A stretch of DNA of 19,497 nucleotides, from the UHGV virus genome UHGV-0127427; one strand, written 5' to 3'. Origin of the DNA: a virus. Both the position numbers and the translations under genes were made by a program. Shown piece after piece: positions 1-17,892 of this stretch. Positions within the stretch are counted from its first letter, which is position 1. Each line of letters begins with the position of its first letter. Under the pieces are notes generated by a model, which saw only the letters and a program-made list of their open reading frames with translations, was not told the origin of the DNA and made no database searches.

Positions 1-1
1 T

Positions 2-1693
2 ACGATTTTTTCCGAATTCTGCGGTTCCCCCGACATCCATCATCTGACGTTGCCATGGACACCAGCCAGTGTCGCACAGCGTAACGGTCGCGGTGCCCGA
101 GTTGGCTCCAACCGTGCAAGCGTTCGCGTTCATTACTACTGCGGCAAGGGTTCTTTCGATGAATACCGACTGAAGACGCTGAAGCGTAAAGCAGGCTGGA
201 TCTCCGATATCCTCCGTTCAGATAAGTCAGAAATGGAGAACGCCGACGCCAACGATATGATCGAAATGCAGATGTATACCGCTAAGGATGATGGCGAACG
301 TCTGGCAATGATGCAGGTTCAAATGGATAAGGCGAAAGCCGCGCAACGCGCCCGCCAGAAAGAACAGGCCGCTATCGACCTTCAGAACTACATCAAGGCG
401 CAACATGCAGCTGGCGAGGATGTTGCGGCTCTTACCGCTGAATTAGAGCGAAGTAAAGCGGAACTTGAAAAGACCACCGCCGAGGTAGCTAAATTCAAAC
501 AGGCGGTAATGGCCAAAGCAGCTGATAATGCAGACTGGAAGGCCCGCTGGGGTAGCGTCCATCACACAGACCGTACGTTGTTAGCACATTATCGCGCGTC
601 GTTGAAAAGCGCCATTCAGCGCAAGGCTAATATCACTCAAGCCATCTCCCGCTATGAGAAATTATTGAACCGTACTCAGAAGGCCGCGACGGATATCAAA
701 CGCCTGCGCCCGCTGGTGGAGGATGCAATAAATAAAGGCATTCTGGATGTTGATCCTGATCTGGTTAACCATGCGAATGAGTTCCTTGTTATCGGCGATC
801 GCTCATGGCGTGTAGGCCAATACTACGATTGTGCCGGTGATATCGTTCGCATTAAGTCGCTGGACTTCGACAGCCAGCGCGCAGACGTGGAGATCATCTT
901 TACCTTCAAAGGCACCAAATCGGGTAACTGGGATGTGAAGACGCTGGATAAACAGGTGGATGTAACTCCCGATGAAGATGCTGTTATGCAGAAAATCAGT
1001 GGTGGCGTCTCCATCGCCGGGATTAACGACATCATTTCCTGTGACGATTTCTACCGTTTCCAGCAGCGCGGCATGATCAAAATCACTGACTCATACGGCG
1101 TTCAGACTACAGAGTCAGGCTATAGCATTGATTTTGTTGGTACCTATACGGACCCACTGAAGCATGCGGTTTACCCGGATCGCCGTGACGGCGCGCTGAA
1201 GTCGTCAATTGCAAAATGGGTGCTTGGTATGATGTCGGAAGGGAATAACCGCCAGGTCCGTTTGGCAGAAGTATTCCTGACTGAACTGTTTGGCTCCAAT
1301 TATGGCGAAGTAATCGCGTCATACGGAGATACGCTATCCCCTGAAGCAATTCAGGAGAAAATAGCGGATGCGATCGCCAGAATGCCGGAGAAAACAAGCC
1401 AGGGGGCTACTCGTAACGGGGATTCTGAACTTGAGGTCACCAATGCCATTTTCGGTACCCATGAGTTCCGGGCGTCAGATTATGAGATCACCACAGCACA
1501 GTTTGGCACCATTGGCATTTACAGCAATAAAGACGAGATCAAGCAGGCAATGGACGCTGCAAGCGCGCGTATTGCAGCAGAACGGAAAGCCAATCTGAAT
1601 CATGCAGTCGCCGCGCTGACTCAATCGTGGGTAACAGCAATCAGGGAGGCCGCCACCACAGGGAAATCACACCGGCAATTGCGGATGTCGTAA
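2..1693 (+). CDS. darB: DarB-like protein, C-terminal ~560 aa (5' end lies outside the window)
   Basis: Reading frame is open from base 2 to the stop at 1691-1693 (the track's start at 50 is a TTG inside the open frame). A helicase motif VI-like QRNGRGAR lies near the visible N-terminus. Followed in the same orientation by ulx- and lxc-like genes as in P1. Assignment is by synteny and motif, not homology search. Confidence 0.5.
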   Translation, partial: TIFSEFCGSPDIHHLTLPWTPASVAQRNGRGARVGSNRASVRVHYYCGKGSFDEYRLKTLKRKAGWISDILRSDKSEMENADANDMIEMQMYTAKDDGERLAMMQVQMDKAKAAQRARQKEQAAIDLQNYIKAQHAAGEDVAALTAELERSKAELEKTTAEVAKFKQAVMAKAADNADWKARWGSVHHTDRTLLAHYRASLKSAIQRKANITQAISRYEKLLNRTQKAATDIKRLRPLVEDAINKGILDVDPDLVNHANEFLVIGDRSWRVGQYYDCAGDIVRIKSLDFDSQRADVEIIFTFKGTKSGNWDVKTLDKQVDVTPDEDAVMQKISGGVSIAGINDIISCDDFYRFQQRGMIKITDSYGVQTTESGYSIDFVGTYTDPLKHAVYPDRRDGALKSSIAKWVLGMMSEGNNRQVRLAEVFLTELFGSNYGEVIASYGDTLSPEAIQEKIADAIARMPEKTSQGATRNGDSELEVTNAIFGTHEFRASDYEITTAQFGTIGIYSNKDEIKQAMDAASARIAAERKANLNHAVAALTQSWVTAIREAATTGKSHRQLRMS

Positions 1694-1710
1694 ACGACGG
1701 CTCTAAATTT

Positions 1711-2322
1711 ATGGATGCCTATCAAATGGATGCGGTGCAGTTGCCATCAGCCTATGGGCAACTCAGCTATCGCATGACCTACAACCTGGTATCAATGTTT
1801 TCCGACCTTGCCATCCTTGGGCTGGTGGACCTTAACGAGGTTACGCCGGAATTGCTTAGCATGCGCAAGAATCATGTTGAGATATTGCAGAGAATTAACA
1901 CGGTTCTTGCCGGGCGCACCGATGAAGAGAAACAGGCCGACGCTGATCGGATAAACCTGGCCCTAGGCAACATCACGGAGGAAGAAATTGCCGCCAGAAA
2001 CGAGAAACAAGAAGAGTTATCATCAATACAGGGTGATGCCACCAGCATAGCTCAGTCTCTTGGTCTGAATTATCGCGTATCCACCGCCGACCTGAAGATG
2101 ATGTACGCACCAAAATTCGCAGCTGGTGAGGTATTTGGGCTTCAGGAGGCGTCCGGCATGAAAGGCGTTCTTTTCCGTGCTAAAGACGCAATCAAGGAAA
2201 AATTCGGCGCTCGCTGGCTGCCAGCGAAGGCGAAGAACAGCGATTTCCCGGGCAACTGGTGGATTATCGAGACAAAACACAACGTGGCGGACGTTCTGGC
2301 CGTCATCCAACAATACGCATAA
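1711..2322 (+). CDS. hypothetical protein (203 aa from ATG 1711; the ORF extends up to GTG 1627, overlapping the darB-like stop in another frame)
   Basis: Long ORF with protein-like composition, same strand as flanking genes, ATG 18 nt after the upstream stop; no strong Shine-Dalgarno. Could alternatively be a frameshifted continuation of the upstream gene. Confidence 0.45.
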   Translation: MDAYQMDAVQLPSAYGQLSYRMTYNLVSMFSDLAILGLVDLNEVTPELLSMRKNHVEILQRINTVLAGRTDEEKQADADRINLALGNITEEEIAARNEKQEELSSIQGDATSIAQSLGLNYRVSTADLKMMYAPKFAAGEVFGLQEASGMKGVLFRAKDAIKEKFGARWLPAKAKNSDFPGNWWIIETKHNVADVLAVIQQYA

Positions 2323-2355
2323 CAGGAGCGCCCGGTTCGCCGGGCGTCGCATAAT

Positions 2356-2796
2356 ATGGCCACACTATCTGATACAATAAAACCGAATAAAACATATCTT
2401 GAGGCGGTACTCCGTACAGCGTTGTTAGGAAAGACAGAAGACGAATACGTTGATTTCTTCCTGTCAGGGCTACGCGGGCGATTACTGAAAAATCCCCGCC
2501 TGTACCGCAGCTATGGCCCATACTGGCCGGAAATTAAAAAATTATTACTGGAGCGCGGTTATGGTAATTTCGGTCGTCTCGTTGACCGTGACGTTCGCAA
2601 ATTTTACCGTTATGACCGCCCGGCGCTAACACTCATAGCCGCGACGCTCTACAGCCAGGAGCGTTTTGATAATGGTCAGATATACTCAGCCTGGCATTTA
2701 CTGCCAGTCCCTGAAGAAGTTGACGACCAGGACTATGAGTTTGAGTCTTACGATTTGGAAGTTGAAGCCTTGGCACAGGCTGGAGAGAAAACTTGA
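2356..2796 (+). CDS. ulx: Ulx-like protein (gene upstream of lxc), 146 aa
   Basis: ATG-initiated ORF whose stop TGA (2794-2796) overlaps the TTG start of the downstream 82-aa lxc-like gene; position matches P1 ulx. Positional assignment only. Confidence 0.5.
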   Translation: MATLSDTIKPNKTYLEAVLRTALLGKTEDEYVDFFLSGLRGRLLKNPRLYRSYGPYWPEIKKLLLERGYGNFGRLVDRDVRKFYRYDRPALTLIAATLYSQERFDNGQIYSAWHLLPVPEEVDDQDYEFESYDLEVEALAQAGEKT

Positions 2797-3041
2797 AAAA
2801 GCGATACTACACAGTAAAGCATGGGACGCTACGAGCATTACAAGAGTTTGCTGACAAGCATAACGTTGAGGTGCGCAGGGAAGGGGGAAGTAAAGCTCTG
2901 CGCATGTACCGTCCGGACGGGAAATGGCGGACGGTCGTCGATTTCAAAACAAACAGCGTTCCCCAGGGCGTCCGCGACCGGGCATTCGAAGAATGGGAGC
3001 AGATCATCATAGATAATGCTCTGCTACTAAATGCTGACTGA
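2793..3041 (+). CDS. lxc: Lxc/Bof-like C1 co-repressor, 82 aa, TTG start
   Basis: 82-aa ORF (the size I recall for P1 Bof/Lxc) beginning with TTG 6 nt downstream of GGAGA, overlapping the upstream stop (TTGA); no in-frame ATG until codon 38. Confidence 0.6.
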   Translation: MKKRYYTVKHGTLRALQEFADKHNVEVRREGGSKALRMYRPDGKWRTVVDFKTNSVPQGVRDRAFEEWEQIIIDNALLLNAD

Positions 3042-3300
3042 GTTTAATATTACAATATTATCTGGGAGATAAATGCATCTTATTTCCCAGATGATAACTG
3101 ATGTTTTACATATTCACATGGTGTACAATTATAATACTGCCTAAATAGGCACACAAAGTACGATATGCTACTAAAACCACAACTTTTTGATACTTGTTTG
3201 AGGGGGCGGGTTTGCTTTAGTAATTTAATAGCAAAAGCCATTCGTGTATCAAGTAATAACTTACTGAAGGAGGTGTTTTCTAATAAGAGTTTTTTCTTTA

Positions 3301-3801
3301 TTAAACTCTCACTATGTATAGATAATCAGTTAAGTCTCTTAGTTTCCAATGTTTAGATACATCTGAAAGAAATATGCTGCGTACTTTCCCTGAGAAAGTA
3401 GGCATACCAGACTTAAGAAAAGCTCTAAGGTTGTCAACATCACTAAAAATTGAAAGTAATGAAAAAGTTAAAGCATCCTTAAAATCAGGATGTATATGAT
3501 TCTGGTCACTTATATTATCGATCATCCTGATTAATAAATCAGGATAAGCAAAAGACTTTTTTAGCAAATGTGGGCATTTATCCAGAAGTTGCTTCCCTTG
3601 GTGATTGTGACAAGATAAATAGTTTCTTACAGCACTATCATTAAGTTCGAATTCGATATATTTATCTGAATAGGTTTGTAAGAATTCGCGTTCAGAATGT
3701 TTAAGCAACAGCACATCACCATAATTTAATATTAAGAAATCCTTAAGAAATTGAAAATTTATCGGTTTCTTTATAAGGATGAAGTAACAGACTCCTGACA
3801 T
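3301..3801 (-). CDS. hypothetical protein, orphan gene in the AT-rich island (start ATG 3801 preferred; ORF extends to ATG 3813)
   Basis: 166-170 aa ORF in strongly AT-rich DNA; GGTGG lies 5 nt upstream of ATG 3801; no motif recognised. Confidence 0.4.
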   Translation of the reverse strand: MSGVCYFILIKKPINFQFLKDFLILNYGDVLLLKHSEREFLQTYSDKYIEFELNDSAVRNYLSCHNHQGKQLLDKCPHLLKKSFAYPDLLIRMIDNISDQNHIHPDFKDALTFSLLSIFSDVDNLRAFLKSGMPTFSGKVRSIFLSDVSKHWKLRDLTDYLYIVRV

Positions 3802-4035
3802 AGCTACCACCATTCTAAAGAGGCTTTGAACAAGAATAGAGATACAGCAGCACTGAAATCAAGAAGTTGTGCAAAAAATAAAAATATTGATTTGTGTCAT
3901 AGTTGCTGCTTTTTATTATTTAATTTTTATCAATTTCACTACAGATAAATAAATTGACATAGTGTGTAACCCCTGTAAATATAAAGGGCACTTTATCTGC
4001 TAAAGCCAACCAATTTAAAAATAGAGGGTGGGAGC

Positions 4036-4726
4036 ATGGAAGTTATCTACATAGTAGAACCAATCATTTCCACAAGCACTAACAAGTTGATAGCAGTGGA
4101 AGTGTTGAGCAGATTTTATTCCAACGAGGGGGGCTATTCTTTCTACTCAGAAAGTATTAGGTATGTTTACAAGCAAGATGAAGATTAACTTGCTAAAATC
4201 TCAACTTAACACAATAATCAAATATAAGTATTTTTTTGAATGCCATAATATATTATGCTCTATCAATGTAGATTATGATACCTGTTTATATATATATGGC
4301 AATAAACAAATTCAAGAACTACTAATAAACAATAAATTTATAGCGATTGAGATATCAGAAAACTATCCTGATTTAAGCGATGAGGATTACATCATATCCT
4401 TTCTACTGACTTTGACAGATAATGTTTGGCTTGATGATTTTGGAAGTGGTAACGCCACCATGAAAGCATTAATTAAAAATAAATATCATGCAATAAAACT
4501 TGATAAGTCATTTTTTCAAGAGCATATGATTAAGCCTCATTTTGATGTCATTATTAGCAATTTAAAAAAGTTATGTCCGAATATCATCGCTGAAGGCGTC
4601 GAAAACATTGATTGTCATAAGTTATCAAAAGGGATAGGGCTATGGGGCACTCAGGGATATTTTTTCCCATCAATTCCGCTGACGGAGATTGAGTCCATAG
4701 ATAGTAAGTGGCTATCAGATTTATGA
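4036..4726 (+). pseudogene. EAL-domain gene (degenerate EAL-only type) split by a frameshift: frame 1 4036-4188 (50 aa, EVL motif), frame 2 4163-4726 (187 aa)
   Basis: Frame 1 starts at ATG 4036 behind GAGGGTGGGAGC and encodes the EAL-type N-terminus (EPIISTSTNKLIAVEVLSRF). Frame 2 carries the remaining EAL signatures in canonical order: DDFGSGNATMKAL (DDFGTG), IKLDKSFF (KIDRSF), IAEGVE, QGYFFPSIP (QGYLFSRP). The two frames overlap around a G6 run at 4128-4133. Confidence 0.55.
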
Positions 4727-4779
4727 GATGCAGAGAGTTAGGATATTGATATGAACATCTAAGCACCTCATTACTGTGC

Positions 4780-5232
4780 TTAAAAGATGTTATCCTTACC
4801 TGTTAATTTACCTTGAGGAACTTTAGTGAGCTCCATCCGATAAAATGCTTTTATCATATTTACAAATGGCTCATATGGTGAATATTCGTTGTCTTGTTTA
4901 GTAACGGTGTCTGTCATTGTCCTGATGTAGTCTGCGCTTACCACGTTGTTGTTTGCTTCAATTAGTACCGGCCTGCCGTTCATGAAGGGATCACGCAACC
5001 TTACACGCTGGCCAACTCGACCGGTAATAAAGCTGTTTTCCTCTTCCACCAGCACGATAAAACCCTTTTCCTCTTTTTCTCGCAATTCGCGCAGCAGCTG
5101 GAGTTCCATATCGCGGCGGCGTTCAGGGTAGCTGGTCCGCTCAGCCATTATCAGCTCATTGTTGATCCATGCAGCAGTCATTGACGCCGGTTTGCCGACG
5201 CTCATTGAAACAACGCATATTTTCTTATCCAT
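4780..5232 (-). CDS. mat: Mat-like protein (P1 mat position), 150 aa from ATG 5232
   Basis: ORF between ref and the island; ATG at 5232 preceded by GGGG; the track start at 5259 is a non-ATG upstream codon. Positional assignment. Confidence 0.45.
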   Translation of the reverse strand: MDKKICVVSMSVGKPASMTAAWINNELIMAERTSYPERRRDMELQLLRELREKEEKGFIVLVEEENSFITGRVGQRVRLRDPFMNGRPVLIEANNNVVSADYIRTMTDTVTKQDNEYSPYEPFVNMIKAFYRMELTKVPQGKLTGKDNIF

Positions 5233-5243
5233 AGCGCCCCTAC

Positions 5244-5269
5244 AAAAAAGAAAAGCCACCAGCGGCGGC
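5244..5269 (-). terminator. intrinsic terminator-like hairpin plus U-run downstream of ref, ending 11 nt upstream of the mat start
   Basis: Minus-strand sense GCCGCC-GCU-GGUGGC (6-bp stem including one G.U) followed by UUUUCUUUUUU. Confidence 0.45.
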
Positions 5270-5420
5270 TTAGCAATACAACTGAAGGTAGCGCCCGGTA
5301 CTCAGACTGTGCCGTCCATGGAATATTTGAAAGGGGATCCATCCGTACCGGGCATGTGATGATTCTGACTGAAGTCACTTGTCAGTTGTCAATCATTTAT
5401 CATTAAAAATAATATATTTA

Positions 5421-5981
5421 TTAGTGCATGATGTTTGCCATCTCATAGGCGTCAGCCAGTAACTCCATCTCTGACTTGTTCAGCAGGGTGAATTCTTTCT
5501 TGCCTCCAACCACACCATCGGCATGAACAGGGACCAGCCAGGGGTATTTTGCTCTTACTTCAGCCGGAGCTGCATGCTGGTGGTGCCATCTACAAAGAGG
5601 CAATTGCTTTTTATGACAACCCGGCGCGGTACGACCGGCGATATGGTGCAGAGACATCTCATTAGATATTACTCCATGCATATAGCAGGCAATGCAGGGG
5701 AGAGTGCCAAGAGCATTGGCGATGCGCCGTTCCTCCGCCGTTGGTGTTCTCCCCTTCAAGCCACGAGATTTTATTTTTACCGCGCTTTTCCGCGTTTTGC
5801 TGGCTGGTGGGCGCTCTTTCTGTTTAGCGATACGGCGGTCGAGAGTATCCCGCATTTTCTGATATTGAGATTCTCGCCAGACCGGATCAGCCAACTTCTC
5901 CCGTTGCCGAGCGATCGCTCGTTCTCTGGCTGCCTTCTGCCACTTGCGGCACTGTTCAATTTTTTGTTCGATTGTTTTCAT
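5421..5981 (-). CDS. ref: Ref, recombination enhancement function (HNH-family endonuclease), 186 aa
   Basis: 186-aa ORF starting MKTIEQKIEQCRKWQK with Cys/His-rich HNH core (CIACYMHG...HH...CHKKQLPLCRWHH); matches P1 Ref as I recall it; located between mat and cra/cre as in P1. Confidence 0.9.
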   Translation of the reverse strand: MKTIEQKIEQCRKWQKAARERAIARQREKLADPVWRESQYQKMRDTLDRRIAKQKERPPASKTRKSAVKIKSRGLKGRTPTAEERRIANALGTLPCIACYMHGVISNEMSLHHIAGRTAPGCHKKQLPLCRWHHQHAAPAEVRAKYPWLVPVHADGVVGGKKEFTLLNKSEMELLADAYEMANIMH

Positions 5982-6592: not shown

Positions 6593-7624
6593 CTAATCGC
6601 CATCTTCCAGAAGGCGCACCATTGCCCCTGTTTCACTATCCAGGTTACGGATATAGTTCATGACAATATTTACGTTGGTCCAGCCACCAGCTTGCATGAT
6701 CTCCGGTATTGAAACTCCGGCACGGGCCATATCTCGCGCGGCTCCGACACGGGCACTGTGTCCAGACCAGGCCAGGTACCTCTGGCCAGAGTCATCCTTA
6801 GCCCCGTAAATCAATCGGTGAGTTGCTTCAAAAATCCCTTCCAGGGCGCGAGTTGATAGCTGGCTGGTGGGTGATGGCGAGGCAACACCATTTTTTCTGA
6901 CCCGGCAAAACAAGTAGTTATTCGGATCATCAGCCACACCAGAGACAGAAATCCATCGTTCGACCAGTTTAGTTACCCCCAGGCTAAGTGCCTTCTCTAC
7001 ACCCGCGGTACTAACCAGAGTTTTCGTTCTGCCAATATGGATTAGCATTCTCCCACCGTCTGTACGTGAGATATCTTTAACCCTGATCCTGGCAATTTCG
7101 GCTATACGTAACAGGGTGTTATAAGCGATCCCCAGAAATGCCAGATTACGTATATCCTGGCAGCGATCGCTATTTTCCATGAGTGAACGAACCTGGTCGA
7201 AATCAGTGCGTTCGAACGCCAATGCCTGTTTTGCACGTTCACCGGCATCAACGTTTTCTTTTCGAATCCGCCGCATGACCAGTGAAACAGCATTGCTGTC
7301 ACTTGGTCGTGGCAGCCCGGACCGACGATGAAGCATGTTTAGCTGGCCCAAATGTTGCTGGATAGTTTTTACTGCCAGACCGCGCGCCTGAAGATATAGA
7401 AGATAATCGCGAACATCTTCAGGTTCTGCGGGAAACCACTTCCGGTTATTCAACTTGCACCATGCCGCCCACGACCGGCAAACGGACAGAAGCATTTTCC
7501 AGGTATGCTCAGAAAACGCCTGGCGATCCCTGAACATGTCCATCAGGTTCTTGCGAACCTCATCACTCGTTGCATCGACCGGTAATGCAGGCAAATTTTG
7601 GTGTACGGTCAGTAAATTGGACAT
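6593..7624 (-). CDS. cre: Cre site-specific tyrosine recombinase, 343 aa
   Basis: 343-aa ORF starting MSNLLTVHQNLPALPVDATSDEVRKNLMDMFRDRQAFSEHTWKMLLSVCRSWAAWCKLNNRKWFPAEPEDVRDYLLYLQARGLAVKTIQQHLGQLNMLHRRSGLPRPSDSNAVSLVMRRIRKENVDAGERAKQALAFERTDFDQVRSLMENSDRCQDIRNLAFLGIAYNTLLRIAEIARIRVKDISRTDGGRMLIHIGRTKTLVSTAGVEKALSLGVTKLVERWISVSGVADDPNNYLFCRVRKNGVASPSPTSQLSTRALEGIFEATHRLIYGAKDDSGQRYLAWSGHSARVGAARDMARAGVSIPEIMQAGGWTNVNIVMNYIRNLDSETGAMVRLLEDGD, near-identical to P1 Cre as recalled; loxP lies 419 bp upstream. Confidence 0.97.
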   Translation of the reverse strand: MSNLLTVHQNLPALPVDATSDEVRKNLMDMFRDRQAFSEHTWKMLLSVCRSWAAWCKLNNRKWFPAEPEDVRDYLLYLQARGLAVKTIQQHLGQLNMLHRRSGLPRPSDSNAVSLVMRRIRKENVDAGERAKQALAFERTDFDQVRSLMENSDRCQDIRNLAFLGIAYNTLLRIAEIARIRVKDISRTDGGRMLIHIGRTKTLVSTAGVEKALSLGVTKLVERWISVSGVADDPNNYLFCRVRKNGVASPSPTSQLSTRALEGIFEATHRLIYGAKDDSGQRYLAWSGHSARVGAARDMARAGVSIPEIMQAGGWTNVNIVMNYIRNLDSETGAMVRLLEDGD

Positions 7625-7631
7625 TTAACAC

Positions 7632-7853
7632 TCAGACAATAGTTTTAAGTAAAGTGTACAGGATTGGCTCTGCCTTTACCTGTTTATGGTTCTCGTCATA
7701 GAAACGCCAGCGACCGCGCGTGCGTTCTATTTTCTCTTCACCGCGCGATAATGACAGTTGGCAACTATCACGATCAAACCCTTTTGCCCGCCAGTAACCA
7801 CGGTTTTTCTCAAGCTCAAGATGAGTGGACACTTTAGCAGCTGAATATCCCAT
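7632..7853 (-). CDS. hypothetical 73-aa protein immediately upstream of cre
   Basis: ATG 7853 preceded by GAGGTG at 4-nt spacing; stop 7 nt before the cre ATG; basic protein (MGYSAAKVSTHLELEKNRGYWRAKGFDRD...). Not a P1 gene I can name. Confidence 0.4.
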   Translation of the reverse strand: MGYSAAKVSTHLELEKNRGYWRAKGFDRDSCQLSLSRGEEKIERTRGRWRFYDENHKQVKAEPILYTLLKTIV

Positions 7854-7950
7854 TTTTCACCTCTGATTGATTGGTGGTGCTAAGTGCGCTACGCGAAATC
7901 TGGAGCACTAACACTGCCAACATTTCGCAGATTTTACGTAGCGCAACCTT

Positions 7951-8023
7951 GATCAAATGATCAAGTGATCACTATTTGACCTGATAAGGTATTGAACTGT
8001 ATGGATTTACAGGTAAATTGATC
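7951..8023. promoter_or_regulatory. GATC (Dam site) cluster in the cre upstream regulatory region
   Basis: Four GATC within 73 bp (7951-7954, 7959-7962, 7967-7970, 8020-8023) between cre and loxP; consistent with the methylation-sensitive cre promoters described for P1. Confidence 0.55.
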
Positions 8024-8042
8024 ATGTTCAATAACCCTTAAG

Positions 8043-8076
8043 ATAACTTCGTATAATGTATGCTATACGAAGTTAT
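8043..8076 (-). other. loxP: loxP recombination site (34 bp: 13-bp inverted repeats flanking an 8-bp spacer)
   Basis: Exact ATAACTTCGTATA-ATGTATGC-TATACGAAGTTAT; spacer is the reverse complement of GCATACAT, so the site is inverted relative to the plus strand. Confidence 0.97.
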
Positions 8077-8119
8077 CAGGTCCGAAGAGGAGTTTACGTC
8101 CAGCTGCGCACAAAAATCA

Positions 8120-8136
8120 AGAATTATTAGAGCAAT
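8120..8136 (-). promoter_or_regulatory. C1 operator (Op99-type) in immC
   Basis: Minus-strand sense ATTGCTCTAATAATTCT (15/17). Confidence 0.6.
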
Positions 8137-8196
8137 AAATTTTGAGAGAAAAATCCCACTCCACCAGCTAAAAACTGGATTGTTTTTCATAGTTGT

Positions 8197-8223
8197 TTGA
8201 CAATTGCTCTAATAAATTATAGT
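8197..8223 (+). promoter_or_regulatory. Candidate immC promoter with embedded C1 operator (TTGACA - operator - TATAGT)
   Basis: TTGACA 8197-8202, operator ATTGCTCTAATAAATTA 8203-8219 (16/17), TATAGT 8218-8223; upstream of coi-c1 on the same strand. Confidence 0.65.
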
Positions 8224-8457
8224 TTTGCCGCCGTTACGTAATACGACTTTGGATTCACTATTTAATGTGTCTTCAGCGTTGTAGAGCGGCTCAGAAGGAA
8301 ATGAGCAAACAGGGAAACCTTATACAATGGCATTACAGCTATGCATTGCTCATCTTACACACAGCGCAATGTTGTTAGATTACCCCAGCATGGATCATGG
8401 GTGAAACAGTAGGTCAGAGCTTCAGGCTCTGTGTTGTCAATACAGTGAGGCATAATT

Positions 8458-8777: not shown

Positions 8778-9629
8778 ATGATAAATTATGTCTACGGCGA
8801 ACAACTGTACCAGGAGTTCGTCAGCTTCAGGGATCTCTTTCTAAAAAAAGCTGTTGCACGCGCCCAACACGTTGATGCCGCCAGCGACGGTCGTCCTGTT
8901 CGCCCGGTTGTCGTTCTGCCGTTCAAAGAAACGGACAGCATTCAGGCTGAAATTGATAAATGGACTTTAATGGCGCGGGAACTGGAACAGTACCCAGACC
9001 TCAATATCCCAAAGACTATTTTATATCCAGTGCCTAACATCCTTCGCGGTGTACGTAAGGTTACAACTTATCAGACAGAAGCTGTGAACAGCGTCAACAT
9101 GACCGCTGGCCGCATTATTCATCTGATTGATAAGGATATTCGCATCCAAAAAAGCGCGGGGTTCAATGAGCACAGTGCGAAATACATAGAGAACCTGGAA
9201 GCAACAAAAGAGCTAATGAAGCAGTACCCGGAGGATGAAAAATTCCGTATGCGCGTACACGGCTTTAGCGAAACAATGCTGCGCGTCCACTACATTTCCA
9301 GTAGCCCTAACTACAATGATGGTAAATCAGTTAGTTACCATGTGCCACTGTGTGGCGTGTTTATCTGCGATGAAACCCTCCGTGATGGAATCATCATCAA
9401 CGGTGAATTCGAGAAAGCAAAATTTAGCCTTTATGACTCCATAGAACCGATCATCTGCGACCGCTGGCCGCAGGCAAAAATATATCGCCTGGCAGATATT
9501 GAAAATGTAAAAAAACAAATTGCCATCACTCGCGAAGAGAAAAAGGTCAAATCAGCCGCATCAGTTACGCGCAGTCGTAAAACTAAGAAGGGGCAGCCAG
9601 TAAACGACAACCCCGAAAGCGCGCAATAA
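8778..9629 (+). CDS. c1: C1 repressor of lysis, 283 aa
   Basis: 283-aa ORF starting MINYVYGEQLYQEFVSFRDLF behind GGAGGAGG; matches P1 C1 in length and N-terminus as recalled; multiple cognate operators in the window. Confidence 0.95.
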   Translation: MINYVYGEQLYQEFVSFRDLFLKKAVARAQHVDAASDGRPVRPVVVLPFKETDSIQAEIDKWTLMARELEQYPDLNIPKTILYPVPNILRGVRKVTTYQTEAVNSVNMTAGRIIHLIDKDIRIQKSAGFNEHSAKYIENLEATKELMKQYPEDEKFRMRVHGFSETMLRVHYISSSPNYNDGKSVSYHVPLCGVFICDETLRDGIIINGEFEKAKFSLYDSIEPIICDRWPQAKIYRLADIENVKKQIAITREEKKVKSAASVTRSRKTKKGQPVNDNPESAQ

Positions 9630-9661: not shown

Positions 9662-10429
9662 TTATTCAGCCGCCACCGGTTTTAACAAGCCAGCATCGAG
9701 CAGTTTACGCGTCAACCACTGTTGTCCTTTCCCCGTTAATTGGGGCGTCAGCCGTATCTGGTAGCCATCTTCATCATCCAGCACCACTTCTTTCACTGTG
9801 AAATATCCGGCGTTTATGTACTGCTGGAACGGCACATTTTTACGCCCGCCGGACGCTATCAGAATGCCGTTCTCCCGTAACCAGGCAAACAGCGCGTTTT
9901 GCTTCAGCCCAACAACCTTTGCAAAATTACCAATCAGGATCCCCTTAGCCACTGATACACGGTCGGCAAAATCGACCTTGGGGGCTGCGGCCACCAGTTG
10001 TTGATTTAGCTGGTGGGCCTTCTGTTCCAGTAGCTGCTTTTGTTCAGCCAGCTCGGCAGCCAGGCGCAAGGCTTCAGGTAGTGTTTGGGGGATTGCGACC
10101 GGTTGCTGTTCTTTTTGCCGGAAGTAGCTGTCTTCCAGTTTTTCAAAGAATGCCCATGCTTCATCTGTGTTTACGATCTTAGACATGCGTGCCGCTCCGC
10201 GTTCGGCCCAAAGAATTACCTGGCTTGTATATTTGCTAACCAGGTGACTAGTAGTCACCAGCCTTTTAAATTCCTTTAATTTTGAACCAGTTAAGAGATA
10301 GTAATGCTTACCTTCTTCAAAGCGATCGGAGTTGCGAGACAAATTTTTACGAATATTAGCTTCATCGGTTCCATAAGCGCAGATAAACATCGCGCTTATC
10401 GACATCCAGATGCGGGTATTCCTTTTCAA
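9662..10429 (-). CDS. phage antirepressor-like protein (ORF6N-type N-terminal region plus KilA-C/ANT-type C-terminal region); start uncertain (TTG 10429 or ATG 10405)
   Basis: N-terminal half AYGTDEANIRKNLSRNSDRFEEGKHYYLLTGSKLKEF...ILWAERGAARMSK and C-terminal half DRVSVAKGILIGNFAKVVGLKQNALFAWLRENGILIASGGRKNVPFQQYINAGYF are typical of phage antirepressors; sits where P1 has pacB/pacA/lpa. Confidence 0.65.
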   Translation of the reverse strand: MKRNTRIWMSISAMFICAYGTDEANIRKNLSRNSDRFEEGKHYYLLTGSKLKEFKRLVTTSHLVSKYTSQVILWAERGAARMSKIVNTDEAWAFFEKLEDSYFRQKEQQPVAIPQTLPEALRLAAELAEQKQLLEQKAHQLNQQLVAAAPKVDFADRVSVAKGILIGNFAKVVGLKQNALFAWLRENGILIASGGRKNVPFQQYINAGYFTVKEVVLDDEDGYQIRLTPQLTGKGQQWLTRKLLDAGLLKPVAAE

Positions 10430-10644: not shown

Positions 10645-11691
10645 TTATCTAACGCTCGACGAATGACTTGTGATAGCGCCGACTCCAAGCGCGTAATCAA
10701 AGAACAATCGTTGATGCATCGCCAGCCTACCGTGCGTCTTCTCCCAATTATCGCGGTCACGCTCAATATCACGCTGGCATGACTGGCACAGAGGAATAGC
10801 ATAAATGTCATGCGCGCATAATCGACTATAACGAACGATATAAGGCGTAATGTGAGCGCCAGCTCCCGCCGCTCCACACCCACAGCATGGACGGGAAGCA
10901 ACAAAGTCCATGTACTCAGGTAATTTTAGCGATTGCAGTTTTGGTATTTTGAAATGCGCCATACCTGGGTCGGAGTCAACATCCACAGGGCATACTTTTG
11001 CACGCATCGGCGCGGCGCGTTCTTCCATCATCTGAACATATGCTGTAGCGCGATCGTCATACGGGCGAATATCCGCCTCTTTCAGTGGTCCGCTATCCTG
11101 CGGAGTAGCCTTCATCTTATTTATTATTGATATGCGGCAGACTTCTTCCGGCATCAGGTGCATCATGTTGCGCATGAAAGCCCACCAGCACAGCTCCTGA
11201 ATACTTAAATCATGGCTATTTGAAAGGCCCATTTCCTGACGGGCGACATCCAGTATCCAGTTAACGCGATTATTGTGCAGCGTTTCTTTCAGCTCATTAA
11301 AACCACGCATCCGGTAATGGTTATCGTGATGCCAGCACAACAACACCGCGCTATTGTCTCGTTCAGCGTGGACAATATGGTTGTCACACCAACTACGATC
11401 TGCGGCCTGGCATTGACCCTCTTTCCTACGCAACCACGCCACCAGCGCGTCAATTCCACCAATACGGCGAAACAGTTCATCGCTGTTAAAAAACGGCTGC
11501 AACGCCTCATTTGTTGCCATGGTTTGCTCGGTAACAACGAGGCCGTCTTCCATGTGCTCGATTAACTCACGCGGCACCGGCTCCATAATAAATTTACGGC
11601 CAGCCTCCACCAGCTTTCTGACCTCCTGATCCACTTTGAACGTGGCGAGGCCAAGCTCTTTCTGTACAAAGGGAGTAATTACGGCTTTCAC
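10645..11691 (-). CDS. pdcB: PdcB-like protein (post-doc gene B position), 348 aa, GTG start, Cys-rich C-terminal region
   Basis: GTG 11691 preceded by AAGGTG at 4 nt; C-terminal CCGCG...C..C..C..C cluster suggests metal binding; assignment by position downstream of doc. Confidence 0.5.
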
Positions 11692-17386: not shown

Positions 17387-17892
17387 TATTGTTGATGGAG
17401 AAGCGCGTTTTCATACTCCCTGACCATTAACGTAAGCACGCCGTGCCTCCTGAAAACACGCGCCACTTCAATCTTATCTTCCAGCGCGAACGCAATTTTG
17501 CTTAGACCAATTTTCTTAAGGAGATCAATCTTTGCTGGACCGTCATTTCTGTCATCGGTGGCGGGACGCATAGATAGCAAAGGCTCTGCCCCATTTGTTA
17601 CGTGCTTACGCAACCAGGCTCGTGTTTTATCCCTGGCTATCTCACAGCGCCCGGTTACAAACCAGAGCGTGTAAATGCTGGACAACTGGCGCACCATATC
17701 AATAACTGGAGTGATGGAAGCATCAGTGTCACAGGCAAGGTTAAACTCGTTCCAGTGCTCTGTTAATGCACCGTTGCCAGGCGGTGGAAGTAAATGCAGC
17801 CTGTCTTCCGTTGCCTCCGATATCGTTCCATCAATATCTACTATGACAATGTACGGACGTTCCTGGTGTGCGTGTTTATTGAAAATACTCAA
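17386..17892 (-). CDS. HAD-superfamily phosphatase-like protein, 168 aa, TTG start
   Basis: HAD motif I DxDGT in IVIVDIDGTISEA; TTG start preceded by GAGGAGG at 4 nt; no ATG alternative nearby. Confidence 0.55.
   Translation of the reverse strand: MSIFNKHAHQERPYIVIVDIDGTISEATEDRLHLLPPPGNGALTEHWNEFNLACDTDASITPVIDMVRQLSSIYTLWFVTGRCEIARDKTRAWLRKHVTNGAEPLLSMRPATDDRNDGPAKIDLLKKIGLSKIAFALEDKIEVARVFRRHGVLTLMVREYENALLHQQ

Follow-up and report, generated by a model that had tools for sequence, protein, structure and literature searches.

The DNA between loxP and cre in this P1-type element carries cra, a gene for a small basic protein, together with a control region of cre that contains the promoter pR1, Dam methylation sites and a LexA box, and it also holds an inverted repeat over pR1 that may be a two-part DNA site for a protein. 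To the explanation as a whole, i.e., cra as a gene, its presumed translational coupling to cre, control by Dam and LexA, and a candidate two-part DNA site at the repeat, we give a probability of about 0.8. The core of the finding is already known, because cra and the annotated pR1/Dam/LexA region of P1 have been rediscovered here. What is added to the annotation is that cra clearly codes for a protein and has relatives not linked to cre, that its junction with cre is a conserved 7 nt long, and that a conserved two-part repeat lies over pR1.

Cre/loxP is among the most used tools in genetics. To our knowledge, the natural control of cre in P1 has been little studied, and we know of no function for Cra, which was sequenced 40 years ago. 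The additions made here suggest concrete experiments, and they leave the understanding of the cre system unchanged.

Identity of the window and features on record

The window, by which we mean the whole stretch of 19,497 nucleotides that was analysed, is to judge by its nucleotide matches a P1-type phage-plasmid, with ~98% identity to P1 and P7 in the cra/cre region. The segment 7400-8300 is 97.7-99% identical to P1, P7, SJ46, RCS47 and many other P1-type phage-plasmids, and 708 plasmid records match it. Beneath the matches to P1, P7, SJ46 and RCS47 (about 97-99%), the records annotate cra, cre, loxP, promoters, Dam sites and a LexA site. The region runs in the opposite orientation to the P1 reference; window coordinates are L001 coordinates plus 5899, and the positions of the P1 promoters were taken over from the annotation of AF234172. 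The genes and sites that frame the region are as follows:

6593..7624, minus strand: cre, Cre recombinase of 343 aa; open reading frame, annotated as cre in P1, P7 and RCS47
8043-8076, no strand assigned: loxP; seen in the sequence as an inverted repeat, annotated in AF234172 and X03453
8458-8667, plus strand: coi, from the list of open reading frames
8778-9629, plus strand: c1, from the same list

The cre of the window has ~80% identity to the homologues of other P1-like lineages.

The cra gene

The first gene of interest and its ribosome-binding site are these:

7632..7853, minus strand: cra (Cre-associated function; ORF1 of Sternberg 1986), 73 aa, pI 9.6; open reading frame with an ATG start, annotated in P1 and X03453
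7858..7863, minus strand: Shine-Dalgarno sequence of cra, GAGGTG, 4 nt before the ATG; read from the sequence, a putative rRNA-binding site in X03453

The initial annotation had placed a frame of 73 codons with a consensus ribosome-binding site between loxP and cre, and both are present, with GAGGTG-AAAA-ATG forming a strong Shine-Dalgarno context for the start. It had gone astray in describing the frame as seemingly unannotated. In X03453, the cre sequence of 1986, it is labelled "pot. ORF1 (aa 1-73)"; the P1 genome, the P7 immC record and RCS47 call it "cra, putative cre associated function", and the P7 genome lists it as "upf0.2". The protein is 97.3% identical to P1 Cra over 73 aa, with two differing residues (T5A, I73V), and it is matched over residues 3-72 by phrog_804 (E = 1.3e-34), a family of unknown function.

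Does the frame code for a protein, or is the region purely regulatory? The two had been offered as alternatives, and both are true without excluding each other, because the frame codes for a protein and the region carries promoters, Dam sites and a LexA box. A regulatory role is well represented on the records, which show the promoters pR2 and pR3 inside the frame and, ahead of it, the LexA box together with pR1 and the Dam sites; it is only the word "purely" that has to go. The suggestion of a real small basic protein made together with Cre agrees with the pI of 9.6, with purifying selection and with a position upstream of cre in one operon.

The purifying selection emerges from a comparison of codon substitutions across P1-like phages, a check that had been proposed from the start. 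Between lineages, dN/dS of cra is 0.04-0.31 by Nei-Gojobori counts. For JK004 against a Klebsiella lineage (L009), 18 synonymous differences stand against 4 non-synonymous ones (omega 0.056); for two Salmonella/Enterobacteriaceae lineages (L007 against L011) the counts are 31 and 15 (omega 0.07), and for SSU5 against Cyrano 29 and 7 (omega 0.04). In diverged P1-like elements from Salmonella, Klebsiella, Cronobacter and others, Cra homologues directly upstream of a cre homologue are 58-67% identical; between P1 and these other lineages the synonymous sites of cra are saturated, and the proteins still keep that degree of identity. Across the P1-like lineages 33 residues are invariant, including the motif GYWRAKG. 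On the evidence of these substitutions, cra is a genuine protein gene.

Within the P1-type population the constraint is looser. Stop codons and frameshifts in close relatives had been named as what would speak against a coding frame; such disrupted alleles do exist, in only 4 of the 78 P1-type loci, and cra is intact in the other 74. Over the same 78 loci (IMG/VR), pN/pS is 0.35 for cra and 0.066 for cre. By these counts cra is constrained, less so than cre, and is sometimes lost, i.e., it is dispensable but maintained. A gene that is constrained yet occasionally lost fits the report that cra is non-essential for plaque formation by P1vir in a CRISPRi screen, with an EOP of 0.66 (PMC10695390). 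In the mechanism that we propose, cra is a non-essential gene for a basic protein of 8.7 kDa and the first cistron of the mRNA that starts at pR1.

The Cra family

When 1.8 billion representative proteins were searched exhaustively with a profile, only 16 representative clusters of the Cra family were returned, and a scan of genome contigs with the Cra profile gave only 9 loci; in PLSDB, few non-P1 lineages are represented. As far as these searches reach, the family is very small and confined to enterobacterial phage-plasmids. Its members have 65-79 aa and a pI of 9.4-10.9, and they share the motif E-(L/I)-(E/D)-K-x-x-G-(Y/F)-W-R-A-K-G-F, with a central Trp, and a C-terminal LLK-x-I-I.

Another point is the company that the gene keeps. 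In the non-P1 lineages a gene of 356 aa precedes cra with an overlap of 4 nt (ATGA); the lox-proximal operon consists of cra and cre in P1, and of the 356-aa gene, cra and cre in its relatives. In some lineages a gene of 68 aa stands ahead of the 356-aa gene. Cra travels with the 356-aa protein, and it also occurs where cre does not. SSU5-type phage-plasmids have Cra homologues that are ~40% identical over the full length with no adjacent cre; there the cra homologue is the last member of a small-gene operon that is convergent with repA, as seen in SSU5 and Cyrano. A Pantoea contig has a cra homologue that no large open reading frame follows. L108, a distant relative, has genes of 188, 352 and 143 aa in this order ahead of a Cra-like frame, with no cre adjoining; this frame closely resembles P0047, which is itself ~39% identical to the Cra of the window. 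The name "Cre-associated" is not general, because the copies in SSU5 and Cyrano, in the Pantoea contig and in L108 lack an adjoining cre.

As for the function of the protein, the searches returned little. A Pfam search with Cra gave only a sub-threshold match to CENP-H, searches of NCBIfam and PADLOC gave nothing, and a profile search of PDB sequences gave nothing below E = 0.1. An AlphaFold2 model built on an alignment of 20 sequences is of low confidence (pLDDT 69, pTM 0.40); it would have five short strands and a C-terminal helix, and no structural neighbour of the model was found.

Could cra then be without any protein function, serving only as a leader whose translation brings ribosomes to cre, or as DNA that carries pR2 and pR3? 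The dispensability for plaque formation (PMC10695390) would suit this, as would the relaxed selection in the P1-type population, the occasional disrupted alleles, the two cre promoters annotated inside the frame and the lack of a recognised domain or fold. Against it, conservation extends beyond an open frame to the amino-acid sequence, down to the 33 invariant residues; dN/dS lies far below 1, and homologues are retained with no cre behind them in SSU5-type elements, the Pantoea contig and L108. We regard this explanation as improbable.

The junction of cra and cre

A single feature separates the two genes:

7625..7631, minus strand: gap GTGTTAA, 7 nt from the cra stop to the cre start; a weak cre Shine-Dalgarno sequence (GAG) overlaps the cra stop codon; read from the sequence

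The TGA of cra is at 7634-7632 and the ATG of cre at 7624-7622, and the 7 nt between the two genes, reported at the outset, are exact. The length of this gap is invariant in at least 10 lineages, including JK004, L007, L009, L011, L121, L122, L123 and L125, while its sequence is free to vary at that fixed length (GTGTTAA, CTAACTT, GCAGACA). The Shine-Dalgarno sequence of cre is at best GAG, and the JK004/Klebsiella type has none.

This arrangement makes translational coupling plausible, by termination and reinitiation on a bicistronic mRNA from pR1: ribosomes that finish cra would probably re-start at cre. The promoters pR2 and pR3 annotated inside cra may in addition supply mRNAs with cre only. 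Given these internal promoters, coupling would be unnecessary for a basal expression of cre.

Promoters, Dam sites and LexA box

The control elements are the following, with the promoter positions transferred from the P1 records:

7931..7956, minus strand: pR1 (P3cre), -10 TAAAAT at 7931-7936 and -35 TTGATC at 7951-7956; AF234172 and X03453
7748..7777, minus strand: pR2 (P2cre) inside cra, -35 TTGATC at 7772-7777 (containing a GATC) and -10 CATTAT at 7748-7753; AF234172 and X03453
7636..7660, minus strand: pR3 (P1cre) inside the 3' end of cra, -35 at 7655-7660 and -10 at 7636-7640; AF234172
7951..7970, no strand assigned: three Dam sites (GATC), spaced 8 bp from one another at 7951, 7959 and 7967 and contained in the palindrome CTTGATCATTTGATCAAG; read from the sequence, with two annotated in P1 and three in P7
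8020..8023, no strand assigned: fourth GATC, listed as the first Dam site (site 1) of the region that regulates cre, adjoining the LexA box and the -10 of P2coi; annotated in P1 and P7
7997..8012, no strand assigned: LexA box CTGTATGGATTTACAG, overlapping the divergent promoter P2coi (plus strand, -35 at 7992-7997, -10 at 8014-8019); annotated in P1 and P7
7864..7874, minus strand: conserved leader motif CCAATCAATCA; stands ahead of the first operon gene in all lineages

Of the three promoters, pR3 has its -10 only ~12 nt ahead of the cre ATG. X03453 labels the hexamers of pR1 as putative; no more than 14 nt separate them, and a consensus scan found no standard sigma-70 promoter at pR1. As these hexamers are putative, the true start may lie upstream of the inverted repeat; a literature search found no transcription-start-site data for P1.

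The four GATC sites seen upstream of cra (7951, 7959, 7967 and 8020) are all there. The P1 record marks GATC sites here as "Dam methylation sites within the regulatory region of cre", and the GATC at its annotated position in pR1 lies inside or adjoining the -35 hexamer (TTGATC, 7951-7956). A further GATC is found at 7772, inside the -35 of pR2. A cluster of this kind is only marginal when taken alone, as 8.6% of shuffled windows contain three GATC within 20 bp. The weight comes from the comparison: every P1-like lineage examined has retained the two GATC that immediately precede the repeat, and all of these lineages, as well as L108, share one order of elements, i.e., lox, GATC, LexA box, two or three GATC (TGATCA repeats), first arm, 25-nt spacer, second arm, a CAATCA-type motif, Shine-Dalgarno sequence and first gene. 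Because this whole promoter module is conserved, a function of the GATC cluster is indicated beyond the weak statistical signal of a single window. L105 lacks the lox-proximal GATC of the module.

By its title, as cited in PMC10695390, the paper of Sternberg et al. in 1986 is said to describe the regulation of cre transcription by DNA methylation. Read together with this title and the P1 record, the three close GATC, in and just upstream of the pR1 -35, would be Dam sites that regulate cre transcription.

The LexA site is annotated in the P1 record at what corresponds to 7995-8014 of the window; the box fits the palindrome CTGT-N8-ACAG and reads CTGnnnnTCCATACAG in all lineages. The leader motif has the form CCAATCA in the P1-like lineages and CAATCAATCA in L108.

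The inverted repeat

The third component of the region is the least familiar one:

7885..7902, no strand assigned: promoter-distal arm, cre-sense CAGATTTCGCGTAGCGCA (TGCGCTACGCGAAATCTG); from the repeat search, the better conserved arm
7903..7927, no strand assigned: spacer of 25 nt, fixed in length and free in sequence; from the comparison of haplotypes and lineages
7928..7945, no strand assigned: promoter-proximal arm, cre-sense TGCGCTACGTAAAATCTG (CAGATTTTACGTAGCGCA), containing the annotated -10 of pR1; from the repeat search and the P1 annotation

The initial annotation was accurate as to the arms, their 16 complementary positions out of 18 and the spacer. The repeat is made of two inverted copies of the core GCTACGYRAAWT plus flanks, one over the -10 of pR1 and the other ~40 bp downstream. 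It is annotated in none of the records of P1 (535 features), X03453, the P7 genome, P7 immC and RCS47, and is in fact the only part of the region that these records leave unmarked; the dyad may be discussed in Sternberg 1986 or Lobocka 2004.

Could such a repeat be fortuitous, or the relic of a duplication with no function? Its absence from the very dense P1 annotation and from all other records compared would be in keeping with this, as would the lack of a known binding factor and the single copy in each genome region searched. The numbers speak against it. No other repeat of such quality occurs in the 19.5-kb window, and only 3% of composition-preserving shuffles have one, a chance expectation of ~0.03 per window; the arm search found 2 sites where 0.04 were expected. 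Within P1-type elements the spacer varies between conserved arms: among 58 haplotypes, 3 of the 36 arm positions are variable (2 of them singletons) against 11 of the 25 spacer positions, and P1, P7 and the window have identical arms with ~6 differences in the spacer. Between lineages the spacers are unrelated, and a distance of exactly 31 nt separates the cores CTACGYRAAW and WWTYYRCGTRGCGC without exception (at least 10 lineages). Motif and spacing are thus kept in all the diverged lineages and even in L108, whose homologue of the 356-aa protein is only 56% identical. A relic is very improbable on these grounds.

Several known elements were compared with the arms. The C1 operator, the -22 box of late promoters (CAAGTGACT) and the LexA box bear no resemblance to them. 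By eye, the arms agree with a loxP half-site at 7 of 13 positions and differ from the ParB boxA heptamer by one mismatch, and both similarities are too weak to be given weight. The Arg-box proposed by Paul and Summers lies, by our reading of the sequence, on the c1 side of loxP, and it is reported not to bind ArgR (PMC2409434). The repeat is also not an intrinsic terminator, because no T-run follows the stem: neither arm has one after it, and there is no terminator-like site in 7560-8300 on either strand. An Rfam search with the repeat gave chance-level matches only.

The central question is whether the repeat acts as RNA or as DNA. As RNA or single-stranded DNA it would form a stable hairpin of about -28 kcal/mol (z = -4), which might, for example, serve attenuation, processing or stability of the cra-cre mRNA from within its 5' leader. 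In each lineage the 71-nt core is predicted to fold stably, at -25 to -28 kcal/mol with z of about -4 to -5. Among the P1-type haplotypes the stem is the conserved part and the loop the hypervariable one. Some of the variation also follows the pairing: three rare arm variants of the P1 type retain it in the cre sense (two change to G.U, one repairs an A.C mismatch), one pair is A-U in some lineages and U-A in others (columns 18/52), and the 1-nt bulge of the JK004 type holds the outer stem in register. Moreover, the pR1 hexamers, on which the extent of the transcript depends, are only putative.

The alignment as a whole points the other way. For the 18-pair stem in 16 distinct sequences, 85.8% of the cells are paired, against 85.6% with shuffled partners; the covariation score is 0.090 in both the real and the shuffled alignments, and 237 of 500 shuffles reach the observed score. 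Both sides change in only 2 of the 18 pairs, and pair 11 is unpaired in 9 of the 16 sequences. At the variable positions, which are the central YR and one W, each arm changes without regard to the other, and wobbles versus mismatches show no consistent strand preference. The arm sequence, and not just its pairing, is conserved at distances where synonymous sites are saturated. Arms that are conserved with no compensatory change suggest the recognition of double-stranded DNA. In addition, since the annotated -10 of pR1 is inside the promoter-proximal arm, a transcript from pR1 would lack that arm, and the leader RNA from the annotated pR1 start has no significant fold. The absence of a T-run after the stem and of an Rfam match also count against a hairpin, which we consider unlikely, if less so than a relic.

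On balance, a two-part DNA site that binds a protein is a better account of the evidence than an RNA hairpin. The layout is that of an operator: a motif of conserved sequence is present twice in inverted orientation, the spacing of the copies is constant, and the repeat overlaps the -10 of pR1; the distance of 43 bp from centre to centre is unusual for one. In our model the repeat would most likely be a two-part DNA site for a putative protein that controls the lox-proximal operon. For this candidate site, which the pattern of conservation suggests, we put the chances at even or a shade below. The remaining probability, beyond a DNA site, a hairpin or no function, belongs to some other explanation. 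Apart from the one in L108, further copies of the half-site were found neither in the window nor in bases 1-50000 of P1 nor in the SSU5-type loci.

A bolder proposal joins the two halves of the story. The repeat would be the operator of a putative host or phage regulator that switches the lox-proximal operon in all P1-like phage-plasmids, and Cra would be a new small factor associated with nucleic acids or a recombinase, and no mere leader frame. As a joint statement it is tentative, and we would lean against it before we would accept it.

Comparison with known systems

P1 itself (X03453; AF234172 / NC_005856) has the same order of elements, i.e., loxP, LexA box/P2coi, Dam sites/pR1, cra and cre. 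Its cra frame also has 73 aa, with a nucleotide identity of 97.7%, and its cra-cre gap is also 7 nt. The differences are small in the control region, where the third GATC, at 7967, is present in the window and in P7 whereas P1 has GACC, and where the spacer of the repeat has about six substitutions. Beyond it, the DNA to the left of the gene ref differs from that of P1, and res/mod is absent there.

The SSU5-type proteins (SSU5_068, CYRAN_62 of Cyrano and those of pMT1-like contigs) resemble the Cra of the window in length (70-73 aa), in their 40% identity over the whole protein, in the motif E-(L/I)-E-K-x-x-G-Y-W-R-A-K-G-F, in a C-terminal LLK-x-I and in their basic character. Their setting is unlike that of cra: there is no neighbouring Cre-type recombinase, the gene is the last of a small-gene operon converging on repA, and the loci examined hold no copy of the repeat motif.

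With regard to the junction, translationally coupled pairs that rely on termination and reinitiation are found in phage and bacterial operons. Like them, cra and cre are separated by a short and fixed distance, and the Shine-Dalgarno sequence is weak or absent at cre and strong at cra. Unlike such pairs, the two genes do not overlap, and cre has independent promoters inside cra.

Dam-sensitive promoters provide the last comparison. The 14-nt spacing of the pR1 hexamers is atypical for sigma-70, and a response of pR1 to methylation is putative here. What pR1 has in common with them is a GATC in its TTGATC -35 and further GATC just upstream, and the P1 record holds a parallel in PkilA, which has three annotated Dam sites around its -35.

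Genes upstream of cra

Cra, the small 73-aa protein encoded at 7632-7853 of the window, just ahead of cre, does not have the same neighbors everywhere. In all of the non-P1 lineages examined, the lox-proximal promoter module is separated from cra by a conserved gene for a 356-aa protein, which overlaps the cra start by 4 nt. Some of these lineages have, in addition, a gene of 68 aa ahead of it; P1-type elements carry neither. Examples from two of the comparison loci are:

L005, 2437-3507: 356-aa gene
L007, 1934-3004: 356-aa gene
L007, 1688-1894: 68-aa gene

The 356-aa gene is also found in L009, L011, L105, and L121-L125. Its product is 76-79% identical from lineage to lineage, it has no match in Pfam or PADLOC, and its remote relatives occur on plasmids of Pseudomonas, Vibrio, Acinetobacter, and Ewingella.

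A different arrangement is seen in a distant P1-like element, L108 (IMGVR_UViG_2871745582_000001, region 600-3200). Its lox site is a variant, ATTACTTCGTATA-GCTCCAAT-TATACGAAGGAAT, and the inverted repeat of the window recurs there, together with a C1-operator-like sequence, a LexA box, three GATC sites, and the leader CAATCAATCA. After this leader, the order is a gene of 188 aa, one of 352 aa, one of 143 aa, and then a Cra-like ORF, which is not directly followed by cre.

Names and possibly doubtful records

The homologues of Cra are named "creatininase" in NCBI and nr (clusters P0002, P0005, P0006, P0024, and others). Searches of Pfam and NCBIfam gave no similarity of the 73-aa Cra to any enzyme family. 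The label looks like a propagated misnomer, and it probably originated from the symbol cra.

Lactococcus phage Q33 (JX564242 / NC_049809) has an exact 34-bp loxP at 17548-17581, within the annotated portal gene. Because a perfect 34-mer is unlikely to arise by chance, the deposited genome may here carry a scar of engineering or a piece of vector. Two very short contigs, one assigned to Acinetobacter idrijaensis (L015, 399 nt) and the other to Catenulispora yoronensis (L021, 704 nt), each encode a Cra of either the P1 type (98% identity) or the type found in SSU5-like phage-plasmids (40% identity); they look like enterobacterial contamination of assemblies from unrelated bacteria.

Gene content of the window

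Beyond the cre region, the following features were recognized in the window:

4163-4726: 187-aa ORF carrying an incomplete EAL domain
5421-5981: ref, with a RecA-dependent nuclease domain
9662-10429 (-): antirepressor-like ORF with a KilAC/ANT domain, beyond c1
10645-11691 (-): DUF968 ORF, beyond c1

The region to the left of ref (1-5300) lacks the res and mod genes of P1 and contains other ORFs, several of them with no Pfam match; therefore, the element is P1-like and not P1 itself.

Control region

Between loxP and coi lies an inverted pair of sequences similar to C1 operators (ATTGCTCTAATAA...), presumably the immC operators, and JK004 and L011 each have a counterpart of this pair:

8113-8136 and 8203-8226: C1-operator-like sequences

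In every lineage, the leader motif CCAATCAATCA (window 7864-7874, -) adjoins the Shine-Dalgarno sequence of the first gene on its upstream side; L007 has two copies, at 1658-1680 and 1905-1925, ahead of the 68-aa and 356-aa genes, respectively.

As for the GATC sites, the internal promoter pR2 likewise has TTGATC as its annotated -35, and the GATC within this hexamer (7772-7775) is not among the cre-region Dam sites listed in the P1 record (AF234172). The GATC cluster at 7950-7971 is a palindrome, CTTGATCA-TT-TGATCAAG, built from TGATCA hexamers 8 bp apart, and in this it resembles the P1 pac site, which has hexamers of this sequence.
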